Assembly (NCBI GenBank): GCA_028279745.1
Contig: JANQNC010000001.1
Coordinates: 1,269,351-1,301,350 of the forward strand
DNA length: 32,000 nucleotides
From: Candidatus Nanoarchaeia archaeon
GTDB taxonomy: Archaea > Nanobdellota > Nanobdellia > Woesearchaeales > JANQNC01
Direction of reading: 5' to 3'
Shown here: positions 818 through 32,000 of the stretch, one piece after another
Layout: each line of letters starts with the position of its first letter
How positions within the stretch are numbered: position 1 is the stretch's first letter
Made by a program: the position numbers and the translations under genes
The notes under the pieces: generated by a model
The model's database searches: none
What the model saw: the letters and a program-made list of their open reading frames with translations, nothing else
What the model was told of the DNA's origin: nothing

Positions 818-848
818 TTTTATCACCTATCCCTTAGTCCTTATAATT

Positions 849-5716: not shown

Positions 5717-5718
5717 AA

Positions 5719-12275: not shown

Positions 12276-12284
12276 ACAGGATAC

Positions 12285-12292
12285 TTTTTTTT
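12285..12292 (+). terminator. T8 run, archaeal-type oligo-T terminator candidate after TrmB paralogue 1
   Basis: TTTTTTTT starts 10 nt after the stop at 12275. It is followed by an AT-rich TATA-like stretch (TTAATATAAAAAAT) ahead of the next gene. Confidence 0.3.
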
Positions 12293-12338
12293 CTTAATAT
12301 AAAAAATAGATAAATATTCTTTATGTAACTACAAGATT

Positions 12339-13136: not shown

Positions 13137-13233
13137 AAAACTTACCTGATATCTCTTGATTAAAAAAGAATAATAACTTCTTTCCCTTAGACTTTCAAAA
13201 AATAACTTTAAACGTAAAAGGGTGAGGGTCAAA

Positions 13234-16200
13234 ATGGTAAAAATAATGAACTTTAAGTCTATCAAATCTATTTTATTTCTGTTTGTATTTTTTTTGTCTA
13301 TCGTAGTTGTATCTGCAGCAAACTGTTGGGATTATGATCTCCAAACTAATTGTGAAAGTGCAGACTGTAGCTGGAATGAAGATCCCTGGGGGGGATGGTG
13401 TGAGGAAAAAGGATGCTGGAATTTTTGGTCAGAAAATGAATGTACAAGTTCGACAAGCACTATAAATAGATCTTGCAGCTGGCAATCATCTTCATCAGGT
13501 TATTGTGGGGAGTTGGATTGTTGGTCTTTTGACGGGACAAACGAGACAGCATGCGTAAATAATACATATAACATAGAATGTGAATGGATAGATGAATATA
13601 ATGCAACAACCTGGGACTTCCCCTGTATGGGCCCTCCAGAAAAACAATGCTGGAACTATACAACATCTGAATCCTGCAGTGCGGTTGCAGGGTGTAGCTG
13701 GGGGATGTGCTCTAAAAAGGATTGTTGGGACTATTCTGATACGGATGAATACACTTGTGAATCTCAAGTCGGATTCAACAAAAAATCTTGCGAATGGAAA
13801 AGCTATTCTTGGGGCAGTGAATGTGTAGAACGAGGGTGTTGGGACTATAGCAATGTAACTTCTTGTGAATCAAATGGATGTAAGTGGGACGGAAGCTGTA
13901 TGGAGCTTTCTTGTGGAGAATTTACTGGAGTAAATGAAAGTTATTGTGTAAGCAACAGCGCAAACCTAAGCTGTGAATGGGATTCAGCAGGTAAGTGGTG
14001 TATGGAAAAAGGATGCTGGAACAATGATGAAGGAAGTTGTGACAACGGCCTTGGCTGTTTTTGGGATACTTTTGAAGGGGGGTGGTGTCAAGAGCAAGGG
14101 TGCTGGAACTGGGAAAATAACCAGACAGCATGTGAAGATACAGGTCTTCATCCAGGACTTGAATGCACTTATGATGTTAGCGGAGGGTGGTGTTATGAAG
14201 ACGTTGGCTCCAAATCCTGTGCAGACATCAACGTAGAAAGAGACTGCATGGATACTTTTTACTGTTGGTGGGATCACTCTCAGAGCACATGCAACGATCC
14301 TGGCGCAGGTATAGAGACTGAGTTTGAAGAATGGAACCCTGGCTGTTATATCTTTGATATGGATCAAAATGCCTGTGGAAATGTTACTGGTTGTTATTGG
14401 AGCGGCGGTGTGTGTGAAACAAACATGACTGTGCTTCCTACTAATGAACTAAACTGCAGCCTTATACAAGACTCAGATATGTGTAATAACATACCTGCAT
14501 TGAGCAGCTGCTGCAGCTGGCAAGCTGGAGAGTGTGTGGCAGATAGATTCGATCAGTCTTGTCGTGAGGAGATGCAGGAACCGCCTGAAGGAGCACATTA
14601 TTGTGAAGACTATGTGGCATACACAAGCAAAGATGTATGTGAACAGATAGCGGGAAGCCCCTGGTTTATGCCGTGCGAGTTTGATAATTCTACTGAAAGA
14701 TGTGAGTTTAAAGGAGATGATGTCTTTGGAGATGGAGACAAGAACATAATGAAGATAGACAATGAGATAAATTGTGAAGCTGCAGGAGGAAAATGGATCC
14801 TTGACACATATCCGAGTACGAACAATGCAAGCACAGCCGTAAGACTATCTCTTGGAAGATGTGACTTTAAATTTGATGAAGAAAGAAACTGCAACAAGGA
14901 ATGTTTTGCATGTGAGTACAAACAAGACAAGACAAATTGGGGTACCGTTGCAGATGCAAGGAAAGCATGTGTCGATTCAGAGCTTGGACTTTGTAGATTT
15001 ATAGAAGATCCAGATGCGCCAAACAGCTACGGTTATTGCGAACCAAAAGAGGAATTCAAGAAAGGGCTTGTAGGGGGAGACTGCAGCACTGATTGTGGTG
15101 CATGCACCTATATGGGAGACCCTGCAGCATCAGCAGGAAAAAGGCCATCAGATTACTGTGAGGGCAGCGATGCAAAATGCAAGTGGGTAGCAGATCCTTC
15201 ACATCCTGATGATGAAAGCTTTGGAAGATGTGCATCAAAATCCGAAAAGACATGTGAGGATAGATGCGATAAATGTTATGATGAAAGCAACTGTCAAAGC
15301 ACAGGAGGAAAACAAGGAGACTCAAGTGCAGCAGCAGTATGTGAATGGAACAATGGAATATGCTCATATAAATCGGGAGCAAGCGAGATGGAAGTATGTT
15401 GGGATGGACAGGACAACAACGGGGATAATAAGGTAGACTGCGCAGATTCTATGTGCTGGTCAGACCCCTTTTGTGGCGGAGAGTTCATGTTTGGAGACTT
15501 CGGAAAAGACTGTTTCATGTTTAACGAACAATCAAGCTGTGAAACTGAAGGTTGTGCATGGGTAAACGAGAACTGGGGCGCATGGTGTGACATGCCTGGA
15601 GCAGTATGCTGGAAAAAAGACGGAACAAACCAGACAGTTTGTGAAGATGGCGGAAGCTGTGAATGGCACTCAGGCTTCGGAGGATTCTGCGAGCAGGACT
15701 GGGATATGGGGGGAGCTGCAAACTCATGCTTCTCAGCGACAAACCAGACAGGCTGTCAAGCACTATCAGACCAGAACTGCACCTGGGTTATCGACGAATG
15801 GTGCAGCGAAAAAGGAGGATTCTGTGACCCAGACCCTTCTTACAGCGGAGCATGGTATGATTGTGCACAGCATGACGTGGATGGAAATGCAACTTGTGAA
15901 TCACATGCAGAATGCAACTGGTATGTGGATCCTTGGTGTCAGCAACAAGGAAGCGATGCAGGATTCTGTGATCACAAAAGCTTTGCGTGCTGGCAGTATG
16001 ATGACGGTCAAAACATATGTGAGAATTCAACAAACTCAGAGTGGTGTGTCTGGATGACTGACCCTTACTCTCCTGAAGGAGGATTCTGTGAAGGAAAGAT
16101 GATGAGTGGAGAATCAGGAAGCTGTTGGGATCAGAGCAACCAGACCAGCTGCAGCGAAGCATCAGGATGCAGATGGATGAGTGGATTCTGTGACCCTCCT

Positions 16201-19110: not shown

Positions 19111-19164
19111 CCTTTTCTTCTTTTATCGAGGGGTTGTCGATAGGGTCAGGAGGTGTGTAAAACC

Positions 19165-19905
19165 ATGAGTCTTAAACTAACAGCTTGGTTGCTTGTAGCA
19201 TTATGCTTGTCTTGTGCTGCATTATCGCTACCCCCAAATCCTGAACTTTACTGGGGTTATGCATACATTGATAACAATCCAGCAAATGGAAGCTTGATAG
19301 CTGAGACTGGCGAAGGAGATATTATCGTTAATTTATCGCTTCCTATGGATCCTGAGTACCCTGGCAGCTATAGCATAAAACTAACCTTCGACGACAAAAT
19401 GACTCGGCACAGTAAAGAAGGAGCTACTGAAGGAGAAAAGATAGTGTGGAAGGTAGACGGATTGGTTGCAGCTATAACAGACACGGCTGAAAGAGACAAG
19501 GTAAACAATAATTTTAGCATAAAAGCGTTTACTCCAGTAAATATGACCGTAGGTAACTTAACGCACGATGCCATGGTGGATGTTGGAGAAATGGTAAAGA
19601 TAAATGCAAAGGTTGAAAATAAAGGACAGATCGATATTGATGGATTTGATGCGCTATTATACATAAATGATTCATTACAAGAAAAGGCACATGTTAACTA
19701 TACTCTAAACGAGGGGGAGAACTTATCTGTTGCGTTCTACTGGCAAGCAGATATAGAAGGGAACTATTCCTTTTCAGTTAACGTTTCAGCAAGAAACTGT
19801 GAAGAGTGCAAGATACAGAGAGCATCTTCCGCTTCGGCAATCTCAGTAGTGAGAAATGAGCAGGCCAACAACTCAGTATCAAACCTAAAAAATGAATCCT
19901 CTTGA
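19165..19905 (+). CDS. Secreted protein with a C-terminal CARDB-like domain
   Basis: ORF 19153..19905. The GTG at 19153 is part of GGAGGTG (an SD), so the ATG at 19165 is preferred. Signal peptide is MSLKLTAWLLVALCLSCAALS. CARDB-like stretch is VGEMVKINAKVENKGQIDIDGFDALLYINDSLQEKAHVNYTLNEGENLSVAFYWQADIEGNYSFSVNV. It starts 54 nt after the giant gene. Confidence 0.8.
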   Translation: MSLKLTAWLLVALCLSCAALSLPPNPELYWGYAYIDNNPANGSLIAETGEGDIIVNLSLPMDPEYPGSYSIKLTFDDKMTRHSKEGATEGEKIVWKVDGLVAAITDTAERDKVNNNFSIKAFTPVNMTVGNLTHDAMVDVGEMVKINAKVENKGQIDIDGFDALLYINDSLQEKAHVNYTLNEGENLSVAFYWQADIEGNYSFSVNVSARNCEECKIQRASSASAISVVRNEQANNSVSNLKNESS

Positions 19906-19997
19906 TATCTTAAGCTCACACTATTTTAAATATGTTTTATTACCCTAAGTGCATATAAAAAAGATACTTATGGCTAAGCATATATCTAGGACTGATC

Positions 19998-20219
19998 ATG
20001 CACAAAATTAAGACAAACGAGGTAGAGAGTCCTGTAAAAAAAGCGCTTGATTGGTTTGCAAACGGTTATCAGTGTGCAGCAACAGAACGAGAGAAGAAAA
20101 GCGCAGATCATGCTGCAAGAGAATTTCTCGAGGGAGTTCAACAAGAGATCAAAAAAGAAGGTTTGACTGTTGAGTATTTCTTGGCGTATTATAATAAAGA
20201 AAAACAAAGAAAAGATTAA
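19998..20219 (+). CDS. Hypothetical small charged protein (73 aa)
   Basis: ORF with helical, charged composition (MHKIKTNEVESPVKKALDWFANGYQCAATEREKK...). A weak AGGA lies 6 nt upstream and a TATA-like CATATAAAAAAG lies about 40 nt upstream. No family recognised. Confidence 0.4.
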   Translation: MHKIKTNEVESPVKKALDWFANGYQCAATEREKKSADHAAREFLEGVQQEIKKEGLTVEYFLAYYNKEKQRKD

Positions 20220-20277
20220 AAAAAGTTGCTGACCAAATAATAACTGATTATATGATCAAAAACCAAAAAATAATTAA

Positions 20278-20296
20278 AAAAAGCTTTGCGCTTTTT
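20278..20296. terminator. AT-rich hairpin (AAAAAGC-tttgc-GCTTTTT) with flanking A/T runs between convergent genes
   Basis: 7-bp inverted repeat with a 5-nt loop. Read on the minus strand it is followed by CTTTTTTTAATTATTTTTT, about 40 nt downstream of the pilin stop at 20333. It could terminate transcription from both directions. Confidence 0.4.
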
Positions 20297-20332
20297 ATTT
20301 CGCGATGTTTCTTAAATCATGTTTAATCCTGT

Positions 20333-20791
20333 CTAGTTTGCGCACGTACCTTCCAGCTTGTTTCCGTCGCCTGTAAAGTTATAGTAGGCACTGGTCTTTG
20401 CATCTTGGTAGTAGATGCTTGTAGTGTAGCTGAAGGACTGGCCAGCAGTGCAGGCTGCAATAGCACCTGTGTATGTTTTTGATCCGCCAGGGGCCAACGT
20501 GCTTGTTGAACTCTCAAGGTCAACACCATTAACCATAACATCAGTCAAAACTATCTGGTTTCTTAGGTTGTTCTTAACGACTACAGTGTCGGTTCCACTT
20601 GCAGAGACTGCATAATCTGTAACTGCAACGTCTGCACTAGCCCAGTAAGATGCTATCGCTCTTCCTGTAACGCCTTTTCCTATCCCTGGAATCCCCCCCA
20701 TGGCAACAACAGCAAGTAATGCGATTGTAATTACTACTCCCACAATTATTATGTATTCTGTTGCGCCTTGCGCTTTTTTAGAAAATCTCAT
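20333..20791 (-). CDS. Type IV pilin-like protein with a class III signal peptide (candidate major pilin, Flp-like motif)
   Basis: ORF 20333..20803. The GTG at 20803 lies inside GAGGTGAT (an SD), so the ATG at 20791 is preferred (152 aa). The N-terminus MRFSKKAQGATEYIIIVGVVITIALLAVVAMG has a short basic leader, then Q-G-A-T-E-Y, then a hydrophobic helix. The remainder is Thr/Ser/Ala-rich. Confidence 0.85.
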   Translation of the reverse strand: MRFSKKAQGATEYIIIVGVVITIALLAVVAMGGIPGIGKGVTGRAIASYWASADVAVTDYAVSASGTDTVVVKNNLRNQIVLTDVMVNGVDLESSTSTLAPGGSKTYTGAIAACTAGQSFSYTTSIYYQDAKTSAYYNFTGDGNKLEGTCAN

Positions 20792-20942
20792 TTTTATTAT
20801 CACCTCTGATTTATTGCAAAAATTGTTTTTACTTACGGTATGGGGAATTAAAAACGTATTAACCTTTTTAGTACCTTTAAAAAGAGAAATTGTTTTATCT
20901 CCTGTGGGGAGTTAGTGGGGGAAGGGGGTTTTGATGGGTGAG

Positions 20943-21965
20943 CTATATTTTAAGGAATGCATCCATTACAAATCTTGATAATGCAAAAATGATAAAAGAG
21001 AACGTTATGATGAGCGGCGCATATTTTAATCCCTGTTTCTCATCCCCTTCAGAGATTACACCTGTCAGTATGCTTGCAAGTAACGAAGTTACAAATATTA
21101 TGATCACAGAAAGCATAAAAATGAAATCTGGAGTTATGCTTACTGTTCCTGCTAGAAAGGACATTCCAAATTCAGCATCAGAAATATTTGAGGAAGACTG
21201 CATATTTGTTATTATCTTTATGAACTGTATTGAAACTGATAATAATAACGGCGCACCAAAACCAACTATAAATATTATAAGCATGCTGTACATCTTGGTA
21301 TTTGCGACCAAGTCTTTCTTAAGCGATCTTGTTTCAGCGATGTCATTTGCAAGGTCTTCCAAGAGCTGGGCCAGCTGCCCGCCAGATCTTATTGAAGTGA
21401 CGAAGAGCTTCATAGACCTTTCGAGCAAAGAAGATCTGCTTCTTCTTGACATGTCCAAAAGAGCTTTCCCAAAAGAGGTCATGCCTAACGACTTGTTAGT
21501 TGCAATCTCGATCTCCTCTTTCAAAGGTCCGAATTCTTTTCTTGCAGCCAGCTTCATAGCTTGAAAGGGAGTCATTCCTGCCCTAAGGTTTGAAGATATG
21601 ATCTGGAGCATATCAGGCAACGACTCTTCAATCCTTCTTGTCTTGTCTGCAGCTTTTAGGTACACAATAAGATATACAAGAAGCTGCACTGCAAGTATAG
21701 ATACCAAAGCAATAATGATGTATGCAGAGGAGAAAGACAAGTTTATGTAACGCGTGTCTATGCTGACTGCATCTGGGAAAAAAAGTTTGTGCAACAACAC
21801 AACTATAGAGAAGATAAGCATGGAGATTATTAATGAACTTCCGATCCAGTAATCAGTACTTTGCTCATTTTTCGTGTATGACAAGAGCTCTCCAAGGTGC
21901 TGTCTATATCCTGAAGGAGCTAACATCGTAAGTGATCTATACAACCTGTATCGCACCCCCATCAT
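20943..21965 (-). CDS. Type IV pilus platform protein, single T2SS-F domain (TadC-like)
   Basis: The ORF track extends to 22154, but an ATG at 21965 forms an ATGA overlap with the upstream stop (340 aa). T2SS-F-like stretch is LPDMLQIISSNLRAGMTPFQAMKLAARKEFGPLKEEIEIATNKSLGMTSFGKALLDM...GGQLAQLLEDLANDI, with flanking TM helices. Confidence 0.8.
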   Translation of the reverse strand: MMGVRYRLYRSLTMLAPSGYRQHLGELLSYTKNEQSTDYWIGSSLIISMLIFSIVVLLHKLFFPDAVSIDTRYINLSFSSAYIIIALVSILAVQLLVYLIVYLKAADKTRRIEESLPDMLQIISSNLRAGMTPFQAMKLAARKEFGPLKEEIEIATNKSLGMTSFGKALLDMSRRSRSSLLERSMKLFVTSIRSGGQLAQLLEDLANDIAETRSLKKDLVANTKMYSMLIIFIVGFGAPLLLSVSIQFIKIITNMQSSSNISDAEFGMSFLAGTVSITPDFIFMLSVIIIFVTSLLASILTGVISEGDEKQGLKYAPLIITFSFIIFALSRFVMDAFLKI

Positions 21966-22855
21966 ATGTTCACCACAGGTCTTCTTTTTTTTATCATGCC
22001 TATCATTATGATCTGCAACGCGAAACAGCACACGACAAACGCGATAAATGCAGCGTTGCTTAAGTTCATACCTGCAAAAGATGAAAGTATGACCATCATA
22101 GTGATGCCTATTGTCGGGATAGCAACAGCAAACAACATGTAGATCAAAGACCACATGTTCAACTCTTTTGAATAGTCTTTTATCTTGGTCTTATGTTCAT
22201 GAGTCAGATTGGCGATTATGGTCTTTAATGCGCTCTTGATGCTTGAGCCTGCGTGTATGGCATTTATCAGCTGCCACAACGTTTTTCTTAGATGTTCTGA
22301 TCCGGACCTTACTGCAGCATTTTCAAGACTTTTATCTAATGGTGAACCTGTACTCACCTGTCTTGAAACTTTTCCAAACTCTTTGCTTATTAAACCATAA
22401 TCTGATCTAGATATGTTGTCAATCGAATCATATAAAGAAGTTCCAGATCCGATCTGAAGCAGCATATCCTTAAGCGCAAAGACAAGGTTCTTCTCAAGCA
22501 TATCTGCTTTTTTTCTTGCAAGTATCGAAGGATATCTCACAAGCAGGTAAAAAAGAATTGCAGAGAATATAACGCTGATCGAAACACTGATCAACAATGA
22601 GTTATGAATTCCTGCTTGTCTAATGAGATAAGCAAGGCTAAAAAAAAATGCAAAGAGCAGCACGAGAGAAAAAAAACAGTTTATCATGCTGACAGACAGA
22701 TACTCCTTGTCATCCATCTTAATATCTGTCTTTTCAAGATCATACTTAAGCCCAGGGACGCCTCTAGAGATCAGTTCTCCAATTCCTGTAAACCTTTTAG
22801 AAAGCTTTTTGCTTACTTCAAGAGGCAGTATCATCAAGGGAATTTTTTGGGTCAT
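21962..22855 (-). CDS. Type IV pilus platform protein, single T2SS-F domain (TadB-like)
   Basis: 297 aa. T2SS-F-like stretch is LKDMLLQIGSGTSLYDSIDNISRSDYGLISKEFGKVSRQVSTGSPLDKSLENAA...GSSIKSALKTIANL, with TM helices at both ends. There is an ATGA overlap with the ATPase gene at 22852-22855. Confidence 0.8.
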   Translation of the reverse strand: MTQKIPLMILPLEVSKKLSKRFTGIGELISRGVPGLKYDLEKTDIKMDDKEYLSVSMINCFFSLVLLFAFFFSLAYLIRQAGIHNSLLISVSISVIFSAILFYLLVRYPSILARKKADMLEKNLVFALKDMLLQIGSGTSLYDSIDNISRSDYGLISKEFGKVSRQVSTGSPLDKSLENAAVRSGSEHLRKTLWQLINAIHAGSSIKSALKTIIANLTHEHKTKIKDYSKELNMWSLIYMLFAVAIPTIGITMMVILSSFAGMNLSNAAFIAFVVCCFALQIIMIGMIKKRRPVVNI

Positions 22856-24645
22856 TTTTGCATAATTTTTTTTGGGCTTTCATTTTTTTTAGCAGCATCG
22901 ATGACTTTATCAGGAGTCTTGTAATAGGTTCTCATGATCTGTCCAACAGAATCCATGTCTTTCAGTTCATGTTTAAGCATCCAATCTAATATGGCCTCCT
23001 TTTCTTCTAGGTCTTTTTTAATCTCGTCAGGAGTCATACCCGTATGTAGATTAAGCTCTTCAATGATTCGGATGCTTTCATTTGTCTTCTCAAACTTATC
23101 GCTGGAAGGTCTCCATCTGTACAGATAGTTGATATCTACTTTCTCTCCCCCCGACAGAACTTCTGCAAGCTCTAACATTCTTCTTGCACCTTTTTTCCTA
23201 TCTCGGTATTGTACTAAGATGAGATGTAAAGCTTCAATCTCAGACTTAGGGATCTGGATGGGGGGTTCGACAAGTCTTCTAAGAACTTGTGAAATGGTGT
23301 CTGCATGCAGGGTGCAGCATACAGAGTGGCCTGTGTGCATGGCTTCAAACATAGCTTCAGCTTGTCTTTTTCTTCTTACCTCTCCCACAACTATTCGGTC
23401 AGGCCTCATCCTCAAAGAAGCAACCATAAGGTCAAGCATAGACACTTCACCTTTTCCTTCAGGGTTTGGGTTCCTGCTTGTCAAAGGCACCCAGTTTCGT
23501 GTTAGGGAGAGGGGTAAGCTTATCTCTCTTGTGTCCTCTATGGAGATTATCCTCTGCGTTGCAGGGATCAAAGAGGTGACTGCATTAAGGATAGAAGTCT
23601 TTCCTGAAGCTGTCCCTCCTGCGACCATCACATTAAGCTCATACTGTACTGCTAGCCAAAGAAGCGCAGCGACTTCAACTGAGATGCAGTTTACTTTAGG
23701 GTCGATAAAATTTATTATTGTCCAGGGGTTTCTTGAAAACCTTCTTATTGTTACTGTATTGCCTGCGGTTGATATGGGGAATAATGTTGCAGCCACCCTG
23801 TCCCCTGTAGAAAGATGAGCATCCATTAGGGGGTTAAGGGAGCTTATATCCCGCCCAGACTTCCTTCCGATCTGAGAGATAAAATTGTATATCTCTTCTT
23901 CATCTTTTGTCTTGTGGGTGGATTCAAGCCATCCATGCTTTTTATGGAAAACGCTTAATGGATTGTTTGCACCATTTATCGTTATCTCTTCTAAAAACTC
24001 ATCTGAAAGGATCAACTCAATGTCTCCCAAGCCATAAATCTTGTGAAGCATCATTCCCGCAAGCATCTTTATCTGAGAATCATACGTTTGCGGCAGTTCA
24101 TTTTTTATTAATGAGTATGAGCTCTTAAAAAACGAATCTTTAAGCTTGGCTATTTTCCTAGGATCGGTTATATCCTCAAAAGATATTGAAGTGTTTTTTG
24201 CAAGCTCATCAATCAAGCAATCAAGAAAGGCGTTAGTTGGCAGTTCAAGCAAAGGCTTTATCAGCTCGTAAACAAGAACATCTTTATCTGGAACATCCCA
24301 GATGTTAACCTTGGCATCTACGAAATCTGATTGCAGTGTATAGCTTTCTATGAGCTTCTTGTCTTTTACGGAAAAGGGTGTGGATGAGGGAGGAGTTAAG
24401 GGCTCCGACACTTTAACTGTGGGCTTTTTTATTATGTTCACAGGATAGCTAACTTTTAGTATCCCTTTTTGTGCAAGCAGGTTAGTCAGTCTTTCTATGA
24501 TGTCTTCAGAAACACCGAACTCTTTTGAGAGTTCAGAAAGGGCAGTGTTGTCGTCATTCTGTCTTATCTTGTCAACAAGCTTGTCTATAAAAGTCTTGAC
24601 AAGGGAGTTTTCTTTTTCTGGCATAGAACTATTTCTAGCATACAT
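22852..24645 (-). CDS. Type IV pilus / secretion ATPase (FlaI/TadA/VirB11 family, T2SS-E) with an N-terminal extension
   Basis: 597 aa. Walker A is VAGGTASGKTS, Asp box RIISIEDTREI, Walker B RPDRIVVGEVR and His box TGHSVCCTLHA. SD GGGAGGT lies 8-9 nt upstream of the ATG at 24645. Confidence 0.9.
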   Translation of the reverse strand: MYARNSSMPEKENSLVKTFIDKLVDKIRQNDDNTALSELSKEFGVSEDIIERLTNLLAQKGILKVSYPVNIIKKPTVKVSEPLTPPSSTPFSVKDKKLIESYTLQSDFVDAKVNIWDVPDKDVLVYELIKPLLELPTNAFLDCLIDELAKNTSISFEDITDPRKIAKLKDSFFKSSYSLIKNELPQTYDSQIKMLAGMMLHKIYGLGDIELILSDEFLEEITINGANNPLSVFHKKHGWLESTHKTKDEEEIYNFISQIGRKSGRDISSLNPLMDAHLSTGDRVAATLFPISTAGNTVTIRRFSRNPWTIINFIDPKVNCISVEVAALLWLAVQYELNVMVAGGTASGKTSILNAVTSLIPATQRIISIEDTREISLPLSLTRNWVPLTSRNPNPEGKGEVSMLDLMVASLRMRPDRIVVGEVRRKRQAEAMFEAMHTGHSVCCTLHADTISQVLRRLVEPPIQIPKSEIEALHLILVQYRDRKKGARRMLELAEVLSGGEKVDINYLYRWRPSSDKFEKTNESIRIIEELNLHTGMTPDEIKKDLEEKEAILDWMLKHELKDMDSVGQIMRTYYKTPDKVIDAAKKNESPKKIMQK

Positions 24646-24854
24646 CTAATCTTACCTCCCGATTTCTTGTTTTTTTTAACTTGGGGTGTTGTGTGGTAAA
24701 AATGTTATCTGTTATCTGAAAAGGGAGAATCGTCTTTACCGATGATAAAGATAAAAAAAGAGTTTTATGATGTGTTTTCTTTTTTATGTAAATAAGGGAG
24801 ACATAATGGAAAAAGATCTTGAAGAATTGAAAGAGTTGGAAGAATGCGAGGAGG

Positions 24855-25088
24855 ATGAAGAAGTTGGTTGAAGTAGTATTATTGAGATACTGTCTTGGAT
24901 GTGGCGGTATTGAAACAAAGTCAAAAAGCAACAAGCATATCACAAAAAGCAGGCTTTTTCAGATCATACAAGAGAGCTCAGTAGAGTTCAGCCACGGCAT
25001 ACACAGCAAGAACTGCTTAAGGAAATTGTATGGTGGGAAATACACGAAAGCAGCGAATAATGGTGAATTATATGATGCATGCAGATAA
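24855..25088 (+). CDS. Doubtful small ORF (77 aa) with a CxxC and an HxxHxxxC
   Basis: It sits in the divergent intergenic region. GAGGAGG abuts the ATG, which is too close for a typical SD. The sequence is MKKLVEVVLLRYCLGCGG...FSHGIHSKNC. No family recognised. Confidence 0.2.
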   Translation: MKKLVEVVLLRYCLGCGGIETKSKSNKHITKSRLFQIIQESSVEFSHGIHSKNCLRKLYGGKYTKAANNGELYDACR

Positions 25089-25130
25089 GAGGGGGCGGTA
25101 AAAATAGCTGATGGTGAAGAAGGACCGGAC

Positions 25131-25970
25131 TTGTATTTTCAAGGAGAGAACAATACTGGAGACAGGGCAGAGGGCGAAATATATCCGCAGTCTGGCTCTC
25201 AAGATGAGAATAACCAAGATATGGAACGTGCGGAAGGTTCAGCACAAGATTCACACGAAATGCATACAGAAAGCGATCTTACAGAAAGGGTGCAGACAGG
25301 AGTGCCTGGTCTGGATGAGATGATCGAAGGCGGGTTTAAGAGAGATAGGATAACTCTCGTCGGAGGGATGGCAGGAGCAGGAAAAACTATATTGTCTATG
25401 CAGTTCATAATAAATGGGATCTTAAAATTTGGTGAGAATGGTGTTTACGTTAGTTTTGAAGAGAACAAAAAAAGGATATTTGAAGATATGCTAAGGTTTG
25501 GATGGGATCTGGCAAAATTGGAAGAAGAAGGGAAATTTGCATTTGTAGAATACACGCCTGAACAGGTAAACAAAGTAGTTGAAACTGGAGGGGGAGTTAT
25601 GAGGGAATTAGTTGATAGGATCAACGCAAAAAGGATAGTGATAGACAGTATATCTGCTTTTAATCTTCTTCATAAGAACGAATTTGAGAAAAGAGAAGCC
25701 ACACTAAACCTCTTCAACTCGATGAGAAAATGGGGGTGCAGTGCAGTGGTGACTGGCCAGTACAGATTTTCAGAAGACATGATGGTATGTTCACCAATAG
25801 AATTTGAAGTAGACAATGTGATACTTCTTCATAACATAAAAAATAATAACATAAGAGTGAGAGCGCTAGAGGTATTCAAGATGAGGGGAACAAGACATTC
25901 TCCAGATACCAATATGATGCAGATAACTGAAGAGGGAGTAGTTGTTTACCCCGGTGAGCAGATATTTTGA
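25131..25970 (+). CDS. KaiC-like / ArlH(FlaH)-like single-domain ATPase; start uncertain
   Basis: Core motifs are VQTGVPGLDEMIEGG, Walker A GGMAGAGKT and Walker B-like RIVIDSIS. The ORF-track start is a TTG at 25131 with no good SD. In-frame ATGs at 25221 and 25260 are alternatives. The roughly 45 residues before the core are acidic and low-complexity. The stop lies 3 nt before the next gene. Confidence 0.8.
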   Translation: MYFQGENNTGDRAEGEIYPQSGSQDENNQDMERAEGSAQDSHEMHTESDLTERVQTGVPGLDEMIEGGFKRDRITLVGGMAGAGKTILSMQFIINGILKFGENGVYVSFEENKKRIFEDMLRFGWDLAKLEEEGKFAFVEYTPEQVNKVVETGGGVMRELVDRINAKRIVIDSISAFNLLHKNEFEKREATLNLFNSMRKWGCSAVVTGQYRFSEDMMVCSPIEFEVDNVILLHNIKNNNIRVRALEVFKMRGTRHSPDTNMMQITEEGVVVYPGEQIF

Positions 25971-25973
25971 AAA

Positions 25974-28049
25974 ATGTCAAAAAAGTGCCAGTCTGCCGTA
26001 GAGGTAATGATAATACTTGCAGTTTCAATATTTATATTATCAATGATACTTGTTGTAGGCAGCAAGATGCTGGGGGGAAGCAGCAGTAAAGTAGAATCGT
26101 CAAAAGCTAGAACCACAGTAGACAGCTTATCAAACGCTGCAGACTTAGTGTATCAAGAAGGGGTGGGATCGAGAACAAGAGTTTATGTAACTTTACCTGA
26201 TGAGATCCAAAGCTTTACCACACAGAACCAGACACTGAAGATGAGGCTCTATTCAGGAGGGGATCTGAAAGATGTGTACAGGAACCTTGATTTTAATATC
26301 TCAGGAGAACTGCCTTCTGAGGAGGGCAATTACTGGATCTATCTTGAGTCAAGGGAAGGATATGTGTATATCAGCAAAAACGCGTCAATCAAAGACCTAG
26401 CACCGCCAAACTCGGTAACAAATCTTGCAGACAAGTCTTCAGGATATACCTGGATATACTGGAACTGGACCAACCCATCAGATACGGATTTTAGCCAATC
26501 AATAGTTTTTATCGGGGGCATTAACGTGCTAAATACGTCTAATAATTATTACAATGCAACCGGACTGAGCGAAGACACAAGCTATACAATAAATATCCAT
26601 ACAAAAGATATCAATGGAAACATAAATGACAACAACGTGACTGATGATGCTTCCACCCTGCATCTCCCTATCGTAATAGTATCACTAAGCGAAAACCCAG
26701 ACCCAGTAGCCCAGAACAGCAACGTAACAATAACTGCAAACGTGACCAGTGATAATGAGATAAGTTCGGTGTGGGCAGAGCTGGGAGGTGTAAACTATAG
26801 TATGGTCAGACAGTTACAGACTGAGCTTGTGACAAAGTGGACCGAAGATTTCTCTTCAGACACTGACTGGGCAACTTGGGACAGTGAAGGGTGGGGGATC
26901 GCCTATGTGAACAGCGCATCAGACTGTATAGATGACTCTAATGACGACTGCATGAACGCAGACGGGTTCGGAACAAATGACCTATACAAGCAGACGGACA
27001 TAGACCTAAGCGACTGCGTAAACGGCAGCGCATACTTTTACATAGAAAAAGTCAAGGAAGAAGGCACATTAGAATCTTCAGACTGTATGGAAGCGCACTT
27101 CTCAGAAGATAGCGGGAACTCTTGGAGCAGCGACTATAACATATTATGTGATGACGATCCAGATCCTACAAAGAACATTACAATACCTGACCAATACCTA
27201 ACATCTCAAGCAAGGGTTATGATAGAAAAAGAAAACTTTGGTGGATTTGGAGAAGATGTGTGGCTTGACGGGTTTAGGATAGACTGTTCAGTACAAAACT
27301 TTACTGGGTTGTGGGAGCTATCGCATAACACTTCAGATGAGACAGGTCTTGTAAGCTATACTGTTTATGCAAATGATACCTCTGGAAACAATGCAGTTCC
27401 AAAAACAGGAAACTTTACTGTAGAACTTATATGGAGCTTATTGTTTAGCGACAACTTTGACAGATCAGATAGCAGCATTTTAGGAAACGGCTGGATAGAA
27501 GTGGATAGTGACTCAGATGCAGATTCAAAAATAAGCAGCAACAGGTTAGTCCTTGATACAGATGACAACACAAACCAACCAAGGGCATTACACAGCTTTG
27601 ACCAAAAAAGTACAGGGACTGTGAACTGGACTTACACGCTAAACTTTGAAAGGACCGGAAGCGAAAACTGGTACGAACTGTTCATGCAGCTTGGAAATAA
27701 TGCGACTATGGTGGATCCTTCAACAAGCGACAGTACGGGAGTTGCAGTTAACCTGAAATGGGCAGGACCAAACCAGGGCATGACAAACCATGAAGGGTTT
27801 GGGTATGTGCAAGGAGGTTCTGTAACCGAGGTTGAGATAGTGAGCGGGGGAGATGCAGTGATAGAGATCATTGCAGACATGGACAGTAATGTGTTTAACG
27901 TATCGGTCGATGGCGTGCAAAAAGCGAATGACGTATCTTTTGACAATAATGTATCAGTGGATGCAGTACGAATTTACACTGACGGACTTTATCAGAACAA
28001 CTTTGACCTTAGAGAGATAGACAGCATAACTGTACACCACAAACCATGA
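25974..28049 (+). CDS. Large pilin-like protein: class III signal peptide plus pilin head fused to FN3-like and jelly-roll-like extracellular domains
   Basis: 691 aa. The N-terminus is MSKKCQSAVEVMIILAVSIFILSMILVVG, followed by ARTTVDSLSNAADLVYQEGVGSRTRVYVTLP (the same layout as the 139-aa pilin-like gene that follows). FN3-like stretch is PPNSVTNLADKSSGYTWIYWNWTNPSDTDF...TGLSEDTSYTINIHTKDINGN (about 26400-26620). There are many N-x-S/T sequons. Confidence 0.8.
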   Translation: MSKKCQSAVEVMIILAVSIFILSMILVVGSKMLGGSSSKVESSKARTTVDSLSNAADLVYQEGVGSRTRVYVTLPDEIQSFTTQNQTLKMRLYSGGDLKDVYRNLDFNISGELPSEEGNYWIYLESREGYVYISKNASIKDLAPPNSVTNLADKSSGYTWIYWNWTNPSDTDFSQSIVFIGGINVLNTSNNYYNATGLSEDTSYTINIHTKDINGNINDNNVTDDASTLHLPIVIVSLSENPDPVAQNSNVTITANVTSDNEISSVWAELGGVNYSMVRQLQTELVTKWTEDFSSDTDWATWDSEGWGIAYVNSASDCIDDSNDDCMNADGFGTNDLYKQTDIDLSDCVNGSAYFYIEKVKEEGTLESSDCMEAHFSEDSGNSWSSDYNILCDDDPDPTKNITIPDQYLTSQARVMIEKENFGGFGEDVWLDGFRIDCSVQNFTGLWELSHNTSDETGLVSYTVYANDTSGNNAVPKTGNFTVELIWSLLFSDNFDRSDSSILGNGWIEVDSDSDADSKISSNRLVLDTDDNTNQPRALHSFDQKSTGTVNWTYTLNFERTGSENWYELFMQLGNNATMVDPSTSDSTGVAVNLKWAGPNQGMTNHEGFGYVQGGSVTEVEIVSGGDAVIEIIADMDSNVFNVSVDGVQKANDVSFDNNVSVDAVRIYTDGLYQNNFDLREIDSITVHHKP

Positions 28050-28465
28050 AGATGAGAGCGCAAATATCCACAGAATTCATAATGATAACATCTGTAATGT
28101 TGATCATTTTCCTGATGATGTTTTCAATAATCGATAAAAGAGATAATGAAGTGTATTCTGGGATGGCTGTGCTTTCTGCAAGGACAGAAGGAGATAAGTT
28201 AGCTAACAATATAAATTCGGTTTTTCTTGCAAAAGAAGGAGCAAAGAAGACAATAATCCTTCCAGAGACATTAAAGGACGGAAACGACTATTTAGTGGCC
28301 ATCTACCCATCAGACCGGTTGGTGGAGGTAAGATGGAATTCTCTAGAGGGAACAAGAACATACACTTCAACGATCGTAACATCAAAAGTAACAGGGTACC
28401 TAAGCGCAATAAGCAACACCTCCTTAACAATATCAAACATAGAGGGGGGTGTAGTTATTGAATAA
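28046..28465 (+). CDS. Pilin-like protein with a class III signal peptide (QxSxEF type)
   Basis: 139 aa. The N-terminus is MKMRAQISTEFIMITSVMLIIFLMMF. There is an ATGA overlap with the upstream gene. Confidence 0.8.
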   Translation: MKMRAQISTEFIMITSVMLIIFLMMFSIIDKRDNEVYSGMAVLSARTEGDKLANNINSVFLAKEGAKKTIILPETLKDGNDYLVAIYPSDRLVEVRWNSLEGTRTYTSTIVTSKVTGYLSAISNTSLTISNIEGGVVIE

Positions 28466-28985
28466 GGCCCAAATGTTTTCTTTAGACTCTTTTATCGCAA
28501 TAGGGATATTTATATTTATAATCCTGCTTTCAGCAATATTGTGGGATTATGGGCGAGAAAAGATTTCAGTAGAAGAGACAAGAAACGATATGGGTCGCAT
28601 TGCAAGAAATGCTTTGTCCGCCCTTGCCGAGACAAAAGGCAATCCAGCAAACTGGACAGAATATGATCTCGACGGATCGACAATAACCTCGTTAGGTCTT
28701 GCAAGCGAATTTTTAGTCATCGACACACAAAAGATAAACTCGTTATCCCTGGCAGATTATGCAGATGCAAAAAAGATGCTTGGTGTTCTTGGGCCAGGTT
28801 ATGAGTTTACGCTAAAGTTGTATTCATGGAACGGAAGCGAATATCTTAGTGAATATTCTGCAGGCATAGAACCAGATGCAGCATCTTATGAAGTTGTAAA
28901 GACAGAAAGAGCAGTATTGTTAAACGACAGTTGGGCAAGAGCCACATTGAAGCTCTGGAAATCTTGTGAGGACATAACATGCTAA
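28458..28985 (+). CDS. Pilin-like protein with a class III-type N-terminus
   Basis: 175 aa. TTG start at 28458, 6-7 nt after GAGGGGGGTG. The N-terminus is MNKAQMFSLDSFIAIGIFIFIILLSAILW. An alternative ATG lies at 28473. There is an 8-nt overlap with the upstream gene. Confidence 0.7.
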   Translation: MNKAQMFSLDSFIAIGIFIFIILLSAILWDYGREKISVEETRNDMGRIARNALSALAETKGNPANWTEYDLDGSTITSLGLASEFLVIDTQKINSLSLADYADAKKMLGVLGPGYEFTLKLYSWNGSEYLSEYSAGIEPDAASYEVVKTERAVLLNDSWARATLKLWKSCEDITC

Positions 28986-29389
28986 GCAAAAAGACTATGA
29001 TCTTTACACTTGACGCGCTGTTAGCGATCAGCATAGCAATATTGATCGCATCTTCCTGTTTTGTTTTTTTATCAAAAACATCTTCAGGGGTATATCATGT
29101 CAGAGGTGCATATCTAATATCATCAGATAGTCTCACTGTTCTGGAGAAAAGTGATGCTTTGAAGGAAGCGATAACGCTAAACAGTACGACAAGCATAGAA
29201 GAGTTTATAGGAGGTATGCCTTCACAGGTATGTGGCAGTGTAACGGTCTATGATTCGTTATCATCGTCAAAGCTCTCTGTACAGAGAGAAGGTTGCACAT
29301 CAAAAAACTTATCTGCAGTGGCCTATAGGGTGTTTGTGGATGATGAAGAAAACATATACTATGCAAAGATGGAGAGCTGGTACAGATGA
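28979..29389 (+). CDS. Pilin-like protein with a class III-type N-terminus
   Basis: 136 aa. The N-terminus is MLSKKTMIFTLDALLAISIAILIASSCFVF. GAGGA lies 6 nt upstream. There is a 7-nt overlap with the upstream gene. Confidence 0.7.
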   Translation: MLSKKTMIFTLDALLAISIAILIASSCFVFLSKTSSGVYHVRGAYLISSDSLTVLEKSDALKEAITLNSTTSIEEFIGGMPSQVCGSVTVYDSLSSSKLSVQREGCTSKNLSAVAYRVFVDDEENIYYAKMESWYR

Positions 29390-30222
29390 AAAGAAAGAGC
29401 ATGTTGTTTACAGTGACGACTACGCTTTTATTCTTGTCGATACTGATTCTTATAGTATCTTACCTGGGAAGATACAACGAACTGGAAAGCATGGCTTCAA
29501 CCTCGATGGCAGGAAGCAGGATGAGTTATATTGAAGATGATATAACTGGAAAAGTATACTCAGATATATTATCGCTCAATGTTGAATCTATAACTGAAGA
29601 AGCGTACGCCACCGTAATCTTCAACCACTCTAATCTGACTTCAGATATTGATCATGGCCAACTTATGAAAGACTATGAGAGTTTTATAGAGGGAAGTTAT
29701 TCTACAATAAACAATGCTGAGATAACTCTGACAAATTTTACAAATTCAATCTTTATCATGCCTTACGGAAGCACCATAACTGTTGAGGGGGGTGTCATCT
29801 ATGTATTTACAGAAAACGCTTCAAGCATAAGCGAAGTTAACATATCGGTGAGTACTGGCGAATCATCAAACATATCAGAAGGTCGCCCTTCTAATAGCGG
29901 CAGTGTAGATCTAAGCGTGGATATAGATTATAGCGGGGGATCTTTTAGCGAGACAGCTTCTTTAGATCCTGCCGCAGCAAACGATCCTTTTTATGTAAAT
30001 TTTGAATCTGGATCAAGAGTGGAAGTCCGTTTTGGCAGTCACGGTGGCAGGGAGGGAACTTTAGTGTTGAACGTGTCACATGCCGCGGCAGACCTGTCAA
30101 GGGTAAGCGTGGGTTATGAGCCATCATCTGAAAAAGTGAAAGTTGTAGGTGGGAACATATCTATAAGCTTTCCAGTTGAGAACATGACTAAAACTTCTGA
30201 GATACTAATTTCAGAGGGATAG
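29386..30222 (+). CDS. Pilin-like / secreted protein with a basic leader plus hydrophobic helix N-terminus
   Basis: 278 aa. The N-terminus is MKRKSMLFTVTTTLLFLSILILIVSYL. The rest is Ser/Thr/Asn-rich with several N-x-S/T sequons. There is an ATGA overlap with the upstream gene. Confidence 0.65.
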   Translation: MKRKSMLFTVTTTLLFLSILILIVSYLGRYNELESMASTSMAGSRMSYIEDDITGKVYSDILSLNVESITEEAYATVIFNHSNLTSDIDHGQLMKDYESFIEGSYSTINNAEITLTNFTNSIFIMPYGSTITVEGGVIYVFTENASSISEVNISVSTGESSNISEGRPSNSGSVDLSVDIDYSGGSFSETASLDPAAANDPFYVNFESGSRVEVRFGSHGGREGTLVLNVSHAAADLSRVSVGYEPSSEKVKVVGGNISISFPVENMTKTSEILISEG

Positions 30223-30244
30223 GCTATAAAGGTTATGAAAAGTT

Positions 30245-30264
30245 ATTATCCCTGCAGGGATAAT
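30245..30264. promoter_or_regulatory. Perfect 20-bp palindrome ATTATCCCTGCAGGGATAAT (terminator hairpin and/or operator)
   Basis: It starts 23 nt after the stop of the last pilin-like gene and is followed by TTTTGTTATT. It lies about 20 nt upstream of the TATA-like TTATATAAAAAAATAATATA (30281-30300) that precedes the gene starting at 30326. Confidence 0.5.
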
Positions 30265-30325
30265 TTTGTTATTATGTTGGGTTATATAAAAAAATAATAT
30301 AACTAAACATATCTTTTTACTGTCT

Positions 30326-31546
30326 ATGATTTTAAAAACAGGAATACCAAAACTTGATGAGGCTCTTCAGGGAGGCATATCTAAGAATAAAAGCATGATG
30401 CTCTACTCAACTCCAGGGGTGGAGAGCATACCTTTTGCCTTTCAACTGCTTCATACAAGATTAGAAGAAGGAGACAAGGTAATCTACTTAGTCAACAATA
30501 AGAAACCAGATTCAGTAAGATTTATGATAAAAGATTATGGGTGGGACGTATCTGAGTATGAGAAAAAAGGGATGTTTGTTTTTTTTGACGCATACTCAGG
30601 ACTGATCGGGCTGGAAAGCGAAGAGAGGTACAAGACAAAAGAGGTCAACAATCTAGAGAAGATAAGAACAGACCTTTTCGCAGCGCTTGAAGAGATGAAA
30701 GATGATAAGAATACTATAATGGTGTTTGACTCTTTATCCACCCTGATAGACATGTGCGGCAACACAGACATGATAGGTGAGTGCGTAAACAAATGTTTCC
30801 CTGATCTAGAAAAGCTTAATGTGACTCCCATATTCTTATTTACGGCGTGGGCATATGACTCTTCTATGCTGGATAAGATAAGAGGTTTTTTTGATTGTGT
30901 TGTAGACCTTAAAGCGATAGAGGAGAAAGTTATACTGCGAAACTATTTTACTGTGCATAAAGCAGACTGGGCAGATGGCATAAAAAAACAAGGCGTACCG
31001 TTTAAGGTGACAAGACCCGGAGGCATAAAGGTATACATACCAAAACTTCTCGTCACAGGACCTTTTAATGCAGGGAAATCAAGCTTTATACATTCAGCAT
31101 CCACGAAAGCGGTCTCTGTAGACAGGTTAGGGACGACAATAGCTCTAGACCATGGTCATGTAGACTATGAAGGTTTTTCTGTTGATCTGTGGGGTACTCC
31201 AGGGCAGGAGCGTTTTGATCCGATAATAAAAAATCTTGGGGGTGAATCCATGGGGGTCATAATAGTTGTCGACAGTACAGACCCTGCGGGGTTTGCAAGA
31301 GCTAAAGAGCTGGTGGGAGTGACAAAGACTGAAGGTCTTCCGTTAGTTATCGCTGCGAACAAGTCAGATATGGATGGTGCGCTAAAAGTTGATGAAGTAA
31401 AAGAAAGGATGGGCTTGCCTGATGATCTGCCAGTAATAGCTGTTACAGCAGAAGATATTACCCAAGTAAAGAAAGACAATATCTGCAAATTAAAAGATGA
31501 TGATATACATAGCGTACTGCATGAGATATTCAAGAGGGTAGTCTAA
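30326..31546 (+). CDS. Fusion protein: KaiC-like domain with a degenerate P-loop plus a small GTPase domain (archaeal COG2229 / MglA-like type)
   Basis: 406 aa. The N-terminal domain aligns with both KaiC-like proteins in the window (LKTGIPKLDEALQGG... and Walker B-like IMVFDSLS). However, its Walker A position reads STPGVESI, with no Lys or Ser/Thr. The C-terminal domain has G1 GPFNAGKS (31057-31083), G3 LWGTPGQERF and G4 AANKSD. Confidence 0.85.
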   Translation: MILKTGIPKLDEALQGGISKNKSMMLYSTPGVESIPFAFQLLHTRLEEGDKVIYLVNNKKPDSVRFMIKDYGWDVSEYEKKGMFVFFDAYSGLIGLESEERYKTKEVNNLEKIRTDLFAALEEMKDDKNTIMVFDSLSTLIDMCGNTDMIGECVNKCFPDLEKLNVTPIFLFTAWAYDSSMLDKIRGFFDCVVDLKAIEEKVILRNYFTVHKADWADGIKKQGVPFKVTRPGGIKVYIPKLLVTGPFNAGKSSFIHSASTKAVSVDRLGTTIALDHGHVDYEGFSVDLWGTPGQERFDPIIKNLGGESMGVIIVVDSTDPAGFARAKELVGVTKTEGLPLVIAANKSDMDGALKVDEVKERMGLPDDLPVIAVTAEDITQVKKDNICKLKDDDIHSVLHEIFKRVV

Positions 31547-31548
31547 AG

Positions 31549-31869
31549 ATGGCAGATATTGTGTACTATATCATAAAAGGGATAGCATTTGTCGTGTTTT
31601 GTGTTATATTTGTAATGATCGAAGAAATAAGGAAAAAAGTTGAGAGAGGGAGTAAAAAACAAGCGTGGACTTTTTTGAGTGCAGGATCTTTCATATATGT
31701 GCTTGCGGCTTTGTTTGAACTTTTGGGCGAGCTTGATAAAGTGAGCATATTCTTTGAATATTCTGGGGAGATAGTTCTTTTCATATCATTATGCCTGATA
31801 TTCTGGGGCATATTCAAGCTTCGTTTCTTTTCAGATGAGGGCAGAAAGAAAATACTGAAAAGGAGTTGA
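31549..31869 (+). CDS. Small integral membrane protein (3 predicted TM helices)
   Basis: 106 aa, starting 2 nt after the fusion-gene stop. Hydrophobic stretches are IIKGIAFVVFCVIFVMI, FLSAGSFIYVLAALFELLG and IVLFISLCLIFWGIF. No family recognised. Confidence 0.6.
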   Translation: MADIVYYIIKGIAFVVFCVIFVMIEEIRKKVERGSKKQAWTFLSAGSFIYVLAALFELLGELDKVSIFFEYSGEIVLFISLCLIFWGIFKLRFFSDEGRKKILKRS

Positions 31870-31883
31870 AAAGGTAGTTGAAA

Positions 31884-32000
31884 ATGGTGGATACTAAGAA
31901 GGAGAGGTTGGATGAGATTTTGCAGAAGCTTACGTCTTCTGGTGATGTTGAAGGTGCAGCAGTTGTAACTAGAGATGGGCTTTTGATAGCTTCTGAGTTG
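31884..32000 (+). CDS. Roadblock/LC7 (MglB-like) domain protein, 5' fragment; runs off the window
   Basis: ATG at 31884. Translation MVDTKKERLDEILQKLTSSGDVEGAAVVTRDGLLIASEL contains the characteristic GV.GA.VV..DGL.IAS start of Roadblock/LC7 domains. Confidence 0.75.
   Translation, partial: MVDTKKERLDEILQKLTSSGDVEGAAVVTRDGLLIASEL

Follow-up and report, generated by a model that had tools for sequence, protein, structure and literature searches.

Does a protein encoded next to a type IV pilus locus act on that pilus, or is its position there an accident of gene order? The question is raised by a 32,000-nucleotide stretch of DNA from a Candidatus Nanoarchaeia archaeon (assembly GCA_028279745.1, contig JANQNC010000001.1, positions 1,269,351 to 1,301,350 of the forward strand; hereafter the window), near the end of which a 406-residue open reading frame (ORF) joins a KaiC-type domain to a small GTPase. 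A first-pass annotation made from the sequence had proposed that the KaiC-like domain of this fusion protein is dead and tethers the GTPase to the pilus assembly ATPase, much as ArlH sits on ArlI, or to a 279-residue KaiC protein encoded in the same locus, thereby placing pilus assembly under GTP-dependent control. The evidence below leans towards a different answer, namely that it lies at the heart of a signalling switch conserved in archaea and is no dedicated pilus component. Coordinates of all features are given in table 1.

Since a protein identical to the fusion product is present in NCBI and a protein database search found homologues down to E=1e-182, the fusion gene is no chance ORF. 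Two ORFs antisense to it (30535..30831 and 31165..31533) were set aside as shadow ORFs, whose conservation (clusters c4 and c5) merely mirrors that of the sense gene. The domain composition is as first read: residues 3–238 match Pfam KaiC (PF06745) with E=5e-25 over profile positions 1–228 of 231, and residues 240–371 match Pfam Arf, Ras and MMR_HSR1, and also Roc, with E=8.5e-12 to 4e-9. In NCBIfam the generic small_GTP model scores above its cut-off and the KaiC-type models fall below threshold; neither Pfam nor NCBIfam holds a full-length model for the combined architecture.

The N-terminal half carries STPGVESI at its Walker A site, where the other two KaiC proteins of the window have GPCGSGKS (101..826, minus strand) and GMAGAGKT (25131..25970, plus strand), so the eroded Walker A noted previously is borne out, as is the retained Walker B aspartate (D135). 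The catalytic glutamate pair, on which the first-pass annotation did not comment, is TLEE and SFEE respectively in those two active proteins and has become NN (LVNNKK) in the fusion; in an alignment to PH0284 of Pyrococcus, GPGTGKT pairs with TPGVE(S/N)x and EE with NN. With the Walker A Lys/Thr and both glutamates lost, the N-domain should be unable to hydrolyse ATP in the standard way, and judged from these residues it is catalytically dead. The GTPase half, as had also been claimed, is complete: G1 GPFNAGKS, G2 GTT, G3 GTPGQERF and G4 NKSD can all be read directly.

An AlphaFold2 model of the fusion protein, built on a 31-sequence alignment (pLDDT 90, pTM 0.81), is uncertain only in switch I (residues 267–271). 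DSSP assigns in it one continuous strand, residues 233–244, that starts out as the final KaiC strand and ends as strand 1 of the GTPase; the model thus predicts two domains joined without a linker. When the family profile was run against PDB sequences, the N-terminal half found the single-domain KaiC-like ATPases PH0284 (2dr3, E=1e-27) and PH0186 (2zts), both from Pyrococcus, and the C-terminal half found Arf and Rab proteins. Foldseek likewise places PH0284 first (target-normalised TM-score 0.88, root-mean-square deviation 2.0 Å over 237 columns), followed by full-length KaiC, of which only one domain superposes (about 13 Å). PH0284 and PH0186 are therefore the nearest solved structures to the N-domain, with 27–28% identity and the same length and topology, and PH0284 differs from it in having GPGTGKT and the catalytic EE where the fusion has TPGVESI and NN.

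This architecture belongs to a large family. The database search returned 1068 matches, the best 120 of which are all 361–426 residues long, nearly all carry both Pfam domains, and come from Woesearchaeota, Nanoarchaeota and Altiarchaeota; those among them that bear names are called "GTP-binding protein", "small GTP-binding protein" or "ATPase domain-containing protein". A scan taking one genome per species found relatives in 259 genomes of DPANN archaea and Methanoperedens/ANME-2, and about 45 of its best 80 relatives are from Methanoperedens or ANME-2, the remainder including DPANN. An exhaustive search of 50%-identity representatives gave 115 clusters at E<=1e-30, of which about 90 are full-length two-domain proteins with identity as low as 26%.

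In an alignment of 201 family members the degenerate Walker A site reads xxPG[VI][ED]xx, with the proline and glycine in 200 and the P-loop Lys or Ser/Thr in none. Both positions of the former glutamate pair are N, Q or S (NN, QS or SS) in at least 184; 12 members have a glutamate, always at the first of the two positions. The Walker B aspartate is kept in 159 of the 201 and is glycine in the Methanoperedens clade. Residues F37, D88, S91, S138, D142, W175, Y177 and E199 of the former active site are invariant in the 31-sequence set. The GTPase motifs are well kept: G1 GxxxxGK[ST], G2 GTT, G3 GTPGQERF and the G4 residues N345 and K346 are near-invariant, with GTPGQ in about 190 members. The fourth G4 residue is Asp in 98 members, including the window's, and Asn in 101. 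An apparent Walker A in the Methanoperedens clade, GGIPKGKS, lies ahead of strand 1 and not at the P-loop, and was discarded. Two divergent sequences (P0231 and P0249) show the reverse of the main family's pattern, with an intact Walker A in the KaiC half (GDCGSGKS and GDPGSGKS) and a degenerate G3 in the GTPase half.

We then asked which genes accompany the fusion, calling and clustering ORFs in the 80 genome-scan loci plus the window (81 loci), with three further loci (L081–L083) added by look-up. Downstream of the fusion gene in the window, a 3-transmembrane (3-TM) protein gene begins at 31549, two nucleotides after the fusion stop codon, followed by a Roadblock/LC7 (MglB-like) gene that begins at 31884, not 31885, and is cut by the window end. 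This order agrees with the first-pass annotation, and the 39 Roadblock residues present are identical at 33 positions to the Roadblock protein encoded at locus L004 on contig JAHJSS010000031.1, a protein that is itself a Pfam Robl_LC7 match (E=4.8e-16). A Roadblock gene lies downstream of the fusion on the same strand in 77 of the 81 loci, and one is present in 66 of 80 loci from a separate metagenome scan. Spacing was scored at 75 loci; at 63 of them the Roadblock start codon is at most 81 nucleotides from the fusion stop codon, mostly at -1 or -4 nucleotides, a spacing that points to translational coupling with the fusion gene. Conservation of an RDGL motif reaches at least 90% across the 76 first-downstream Roadblock proteins, the window's fragment included.

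These properties also place the GTPase. MglA groups 2–5 are defined by a G3 that reads GTPGQ and a G2 that has Thr-Thr, and the MglB proteins coupled to them bear a conserved Asp-Gly pair (Wuichet and Sogaard-Andersen 2014, PMC4316618). The fusion GTPase has GTPGQ and TT, and its Roadblock partner has RDGL; these signature residues assign it to the MglA type, in the little-understood groups 2–5, and mark it as neither an Arf protein nor a Myxococcus-type MglA. The previous reading of GTPase plus Roadblock as an MglA/MglB-type module is accordingly sustained by the 77 loci and by the G2/G3 and RDG signatures. Groups 2–5, which include archaeal group 4 and the actinobacterial CvnD/CvnB, share with the fusion the G1 P-loop, Thr-Thr, GTPGQ with its catalytic glutamine, an NKxD-type G4 and a translationally coupled Roadblock/MglB gene with the Asp-Gly pair. 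They are single-domain proteins of about 160–200 residues, whereas the fusion, at 406 residues, carries a dead 238-residue KaiC domain N-terminally, and in half of its family the G4 Asp is replaced by Asn. MglA group 1 (Myxococcus and Thermus) was rejected as an assignment, having TVPGQ and an Arg finger beside the G2 Thr where the fusion has GTPGQ and L-G-T-T; the fusion family does have an invariant arginine, R267, three residues ahead of the first G2 Thr. BLASTP against an approximate MglA sequence gave 27% identity over 83 residues, which serves as a lead only. The actinobacterial conservon (CvnA-D) was also rejected, as neither the CvnA kinase nor CvnC (DUF742) was seen in the annotated neighbourhoods.

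The second commonest partner is a degenerate KaiC-like protein matching Pfam DUF7504, DUF7090 and KaiC, with a P-loop reduced to GPPxxGKE, GEK or worse. In 44 Methanoperedens/ANME loci its gene lies directly upstream of the fusion with a gap of 0–2 nucleotides, and in DPANN loci it lies 0.4–9 kb downstream on the same strand. The proposal that the dead KaiC domain docks on another KaiC-like protein is thus plausible in kind; the conserved co-operonic candidate is this DUF7504-type protein and not the 279-residue KaiC originally named.

The wider context varies with lineage. In Woese- and Nanoarchaeota one or two small multi-TM genes separate fusion and Roadblock, TrmB lies upstream, and the genes that follow encode PAS proteins, additional Roadblock proteins and 7-TM proteins. 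The window's 106-residue 3-TM protein has no significant Pfam match (HisKA_7TM, at E=7e-4, is below the cut-off), and hmmsearch and jackhmmer found no similarity between it and the small TM proteins of clusters c100 and c126, which hold the same place in those loci; the agreement is in position, size and topology only. The closest relatives (63–64% identity, on long contigs) show the order TrmB, TrmB, fusion, small ORFs, Robl_LC7, FIST, HAMP, Robl_LC7, PAS/GAF, KaiC-DUF7504, Response_reg, and have no pilus genes. Altiarchaeota have a ThiL-like gene upstream of the fusion. In Methanoperedens/ANME-2 (L037–L079) the trio DUF7504/fusion/Roadblock is always followed on the same strand, within about 0–2 kb, by genes for YhbY-like, eS19 and PDCD5-like proteins, a translation-related setting that differs sharply from the one in DPANN. 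The only universal partners are therefore the Roadblock protein and, less strictly, the second dead KaiC. At L004 (11187..20691, plus strand) the operon runs about 9 kb past the fusion and encodes three Roadblock paralogues, several membrane or sensor proteins, one PAS and one 7-TM protein and, as its last product, a DUF7504-type KaiC, which suggests what the genome may hold past the window end.

What, then, of the pilus? The first-pass annotation was right that a type IV pilus locus adjoins the fusion gene: a T2SSE ATPase, two T2SSF/TadC genes and a pilin with a class III signal peptide were confirmed. This locus is part of a 17.2-kb interval (13137..30325) between the fusion gene and a pair of TrmB-family regulators. 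At L083 the corresponding TrmB pair ends 117 nucleotides ahead of the fusion gene, and by sequence the window's pair is orthologous to the pair directly upstream of the fusion in the closest relatives. The 17-kb block shows synteny only with L004 and is absent from L081–L083, L002, L003 and L023. Among the 80 loci of the genome scan, with 1.07 Mb of flanking sequence, two have a relative of the window's pilus ATPase, adjacent and syntenic at L004 and 7 kb away at L022; TadC relatives were found among these loci at L004 only, and no T2SSE ATPase lies within 10 kb at L081–L083. The metagenome scan (80 loci, 0.70 Mb), for which an alignment was used as query after a single-protein query had returned nothing, added no independent pilus case, L097 alone having the ATPase and being the same sequence as L004. 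The claim that the fusion is tied to the pilus therefore did not hold up, with T2SSE within 10 kb at two of 80 loci and none among the pilus-free closest relatives; the neighbourhood survey, named beforehand as a way in which the claim could be refuted, found a common, generically annotated family with no enrichment for pilus genes. We conclude that the adjacency arose locally, by an accident of gene order, and is not a family trait.

The DNA between the two sets of genes is in keeping with this. The last pilin-like gene is separated from the fusion by a perfect 20-nucleotide palindrome with a T-rich tail, which probably marks the transcript boundary of the pilin operon and may act as a terminator hairpin or as an operator, and a TATA-like stretch follows about 40 nucleotides upstream of the fusion start codon; together they suggest that pilin and fusion genes are on separate transcripts. 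A conserved operator was considered and dropped for the palindrome, ATTATCCCTGCAGGGATAAT, which occurs once in the window and at none of 83 related loci.

Control of the pilus through a tether to its ATPase, or to the 279-residue KaiC, nevertheless draws on a precedent. ArlH (FlaH), a KaiC-like protein that binds ATP, docks on the ArlI ATPase of the archaellum, and the window resembles that system in placing a single KaiC-like domain beside a T2SSE-type ATPase gene. The resemblance ends there, for the locus has no archaellin or ArlJ context genes, the fusion's KaiC domain has no P-loop Lys, and the NCBIfam ArlH equivalog scores 20.2 bits against a cut-off of 215. Type IV pili of Myxococcus are regulated by MglA and SofG (PMC4316618), archaeal type IV pilus loci often have KaiC-family and Roadblock genes in or near them (Makarova et al. 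2016, PMC4858521), and the fusion stands beside a complete pilus locus both in the window and at L004. Set against the survey, the block absent from relatives and the hairpin, T-run and A+T-rich stretch in between, these points leave a pilus tether unlikely. A housekeeping role in translation or ribosome biogenesis, in which the GTPase and Roadblock act on the translation apparatus and nearby signalling genes are incidental, is less probable again: some 40 Methanoperedens/ANME trios do precede the YhbY-like RNA-binding protein, eS19 and PDCD5-like genes, and L081 and L083 have eIF2-gamma and eS6 a few kb further downstream, but in DPANN such genes occupy the opposite strand, the Altiarchaeota neighbours differ, the fusion has no translation-factor-type domains, and a family missing from most archaea is a poor fit to a core function.

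In the PDB the GTPase domain finds its best sequence matches in Arl3, Arf1 and Arl2 (E=2e-11 to 1e-9), which raises the idea of an Arf- or ArvA-like membrane-remodelling GTPase, recruited by the adjacent small membrane proteins for vesicle formation or DPANN surface contact; a 3-TM gene between fusion and Roadblock, here and in Woese- and Nanoarchaeota relatives, would suit it. ArvA-family GTPases drive vesicle formation in Haloferax, occur in Euryarchaeota and DPANN, and are coupled to arvB (DUF2073) and arvC (DUF2072) (PMC10927574). Neither DUF2073 nor DUF2072 is present in the Pfam-annotated loci L081–L083, where Roadblock lies downstream instead, so that gene context sets ArvA apart. Arf/Arl proteins call for DxGGQ in G3 and an amphipathic N-terminal helix; the fusion has GTPGQ, with Gly290 at the G3 Asp in the Arl3 alignment, and a KaiC domain at its N-terminus. 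As the TM genes are also missing in Altiarchaeota and Methanoperedens, we regard membrane remodelling as highly improbable.

Several points weigh against a conserved signalling switch. In a rough neighbour-joining tree of the fusions, pilus adjacency recurs in two sub-clades, that of the window and that of L004, whose remaining members have no pilus genes, and between window and L004 the adjacency is kept though the ATPase-TadC block has been inverted and moved. Such recurrence could reflect a real local link, and pilus control in the window's lineage is conceivable, if doubtful, without being the function of the family. The Methanoperedens trio has no sensors or regulators nearby, and because it sits among translation-related genes the signalling context is itself lineage-specific. 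In engineered GTPases, changing the G4 Asp to Asn moves specificity from GTP to xanthosine triphosphate (XTP), and since half of the family has Asn there its nucleotide specificity is uncertain. The catalytic mechanism of MglA groups 2–5 is uncharacterised (PMC4316618). Finally, both the action assigned below to the Roadblock protein and the ring formation assigned to the dead KaiC domain would follow by analogy only.

On the reading that we consider the most likely, in which the protein is the core of a signalling switch, its GTPase would cycle between GTP and GDP with its state set by a Roadblock dimer acting as GTPase-activating protein and/or guanine nucleotide exchange factor, in the way that MglB acts on MglA. 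The dead KaiC domain would be a docking and oligomerisation platform, putting the switch into a RecA-type ring or heteromer together with the DUF7504 protein and perhaps also active KaiC ATPases. Sensors of the same operon (PAS, FIST, HAMP and small membrane proteins) may set the switch state, and output would probably run by way of protein-protein contacts and of the upstream TrmB-type genes' products; locally the pilus might be among its targets, though nothing requires a pilus role. A bolder and rather improbable version is a two-tier KaiC-like ring, with dead KaiC domains (perhaps alternating with DUF7504) in one tier and six MglA-type GTPases in place of CII in the other, recruited to the adjacent pilus in the window's lineage; if true, it would be a GTP-driven KaiC hub timed by Roadblock, bringing the two main archaeal non-kinase signalling systems into one particle.

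KaiC-like proteins have been proposed as the main signalling hubs of archaea, and MglA/MglB-type switches are thought to be ancestral to small-GTPase regulation in eukaryotes; the fusion joins a domain of each type physically in one polypeptide. Inactivated KaiC (iKaiC) domains of archaeal signalling proteins were reportedly treated by Makarova, Galperin and Koonin in 2017. They are established signalling parts (PMC5847659; arCOG names in the PMC4858521 supplement), and iKaiC proteins as the term is used in Galperin 2018 (arCOG01175, arCOG03793/DUF835) resemble the fusion in their single RecA-fold KaiC domain with degenerate Walker A and in their multi-gene neighbourhoods with PAS, REC, transcription regulators and KaiC paralogues. 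They differ in the partner domain, which in the fusion is a small GTPase, and no description of an iKaiC-GTPase fusion was found in the searchable literature, which did not extend to Makarova et al. 2017 (mBio). To that extent the suggestion of an undescribed architecture stands; as to rarity, the family is common and generically annotated, and its parts are all of known kinds, namely iKaiC domains, MglA/MglB modules, and KaiC and Roadblock genes near pilus loci. A large, well conserved family in DPANN and methane-oxidising Methanoperedens is thus without a name or curated model. It offers an entry point to signal transmission by dead KaiC domains and to the way in which MglA groups 2–5 work with Roadblock partners, through the Methanoperedens nitroreducens trio WP_048089398 (the DUF7504 protein), WP_048089397 (the fusion) and WP_048089396 ("roadblock/LC7 domain-containing protein"), and through the high-confidence predicted structure of the window's fusion. 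It also holds a lesson for annotation, in that the pilus-related reading over-interpreted local gene order.

Table 1. Features of the window, in order of position.
Feature	Position	Strand	Basis or remark
Active KaiC gene	101..826	-	beside rhomboid protease gene
Rhomboid protease gene	849..1451	-	
HAMP/4HB_MCP sensor protein	1870..3093	-	
Three tandem paralogous FAD-dependent oxidoreductases	3313..6972	+	lycopene cyclase/FAD_binding_3 matches; possibly geranylgeranyl-reductase-like
790-residue ORF	7028..9400	+	no Pfam match
299-residue protein	10302..11204	-	AbrB/MazE-type N-terminal domain
Two TrmB-family regulators	11481..13136	+	Pfam TrmB and Regulator_TrmB; 68% and 59% identity to L083 pair
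Interval genes, outside the module	13222..30222	.	giant ORF, CARDB protein, type IV pilus locus
1962-residue ORF	13222..19110	+	no Pfam match; G+C 0.43-0.48 against 0.36-0.40 in flanks
CARDB-domain protein	19153..19905		Pfam CARDB
Pilin, class III signal peptide	20333..20803	-	Pfam Class_IIIsignal
Two T2SSF/TadC genes	20943..22855	-	Pfam T2SSF
Pilus ATPase T2SSE, 597 residues	22852..24645	-	Pfam T2SSE, E=3.6e-31
Active KaiC, 279 residues	25131..25970	+	Pfam KaiC
Five pilin-like genes	25974..30222	+	
Perfect 20-nucleotide palindrome ATTATCCCTGCAGGGATAAT	30245..30264	.	T-rich tail; terminator-like inverted repeat
Putative promoter of fusion operon TTATATAAAAAAATAATATAAC	30282..30303	+	A+T-rich, TATA-like
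Fusion gene	30326..31546	+	406-residue ORF, KaiC-type domain and small GTPase
Inactivated KaiC-like (iKaiC) RecA-fold domain	30326..31039	+	residues 1-238; Pfam, PDB profile, Foldseek
Small GTPase domain, MglA group 2-5 type, and stop codon	31040..31546	+	residues 239-406; Pfam, NCBIfam, motifs
G4 motif NKSD	31358..31369	+	read from sequence
Predicted 3-TM protein, 106 residues	31549..31869	+	three hydrophobic segments
Roadblock/LC7 (MglB-like) gene, start only	31884..32000	+	33/39 match to L004 Roadblock

Of the genes outside the fusion operon, the 1962-residue ORF may encode a giant surface protein. The active KaiC and rhomboid genes at the start of the window form a pair that recurs elsewhere, lying 2–5 kb from the fusion and on the opposite strand in L005, L008, L009, L010, L012 and L015.

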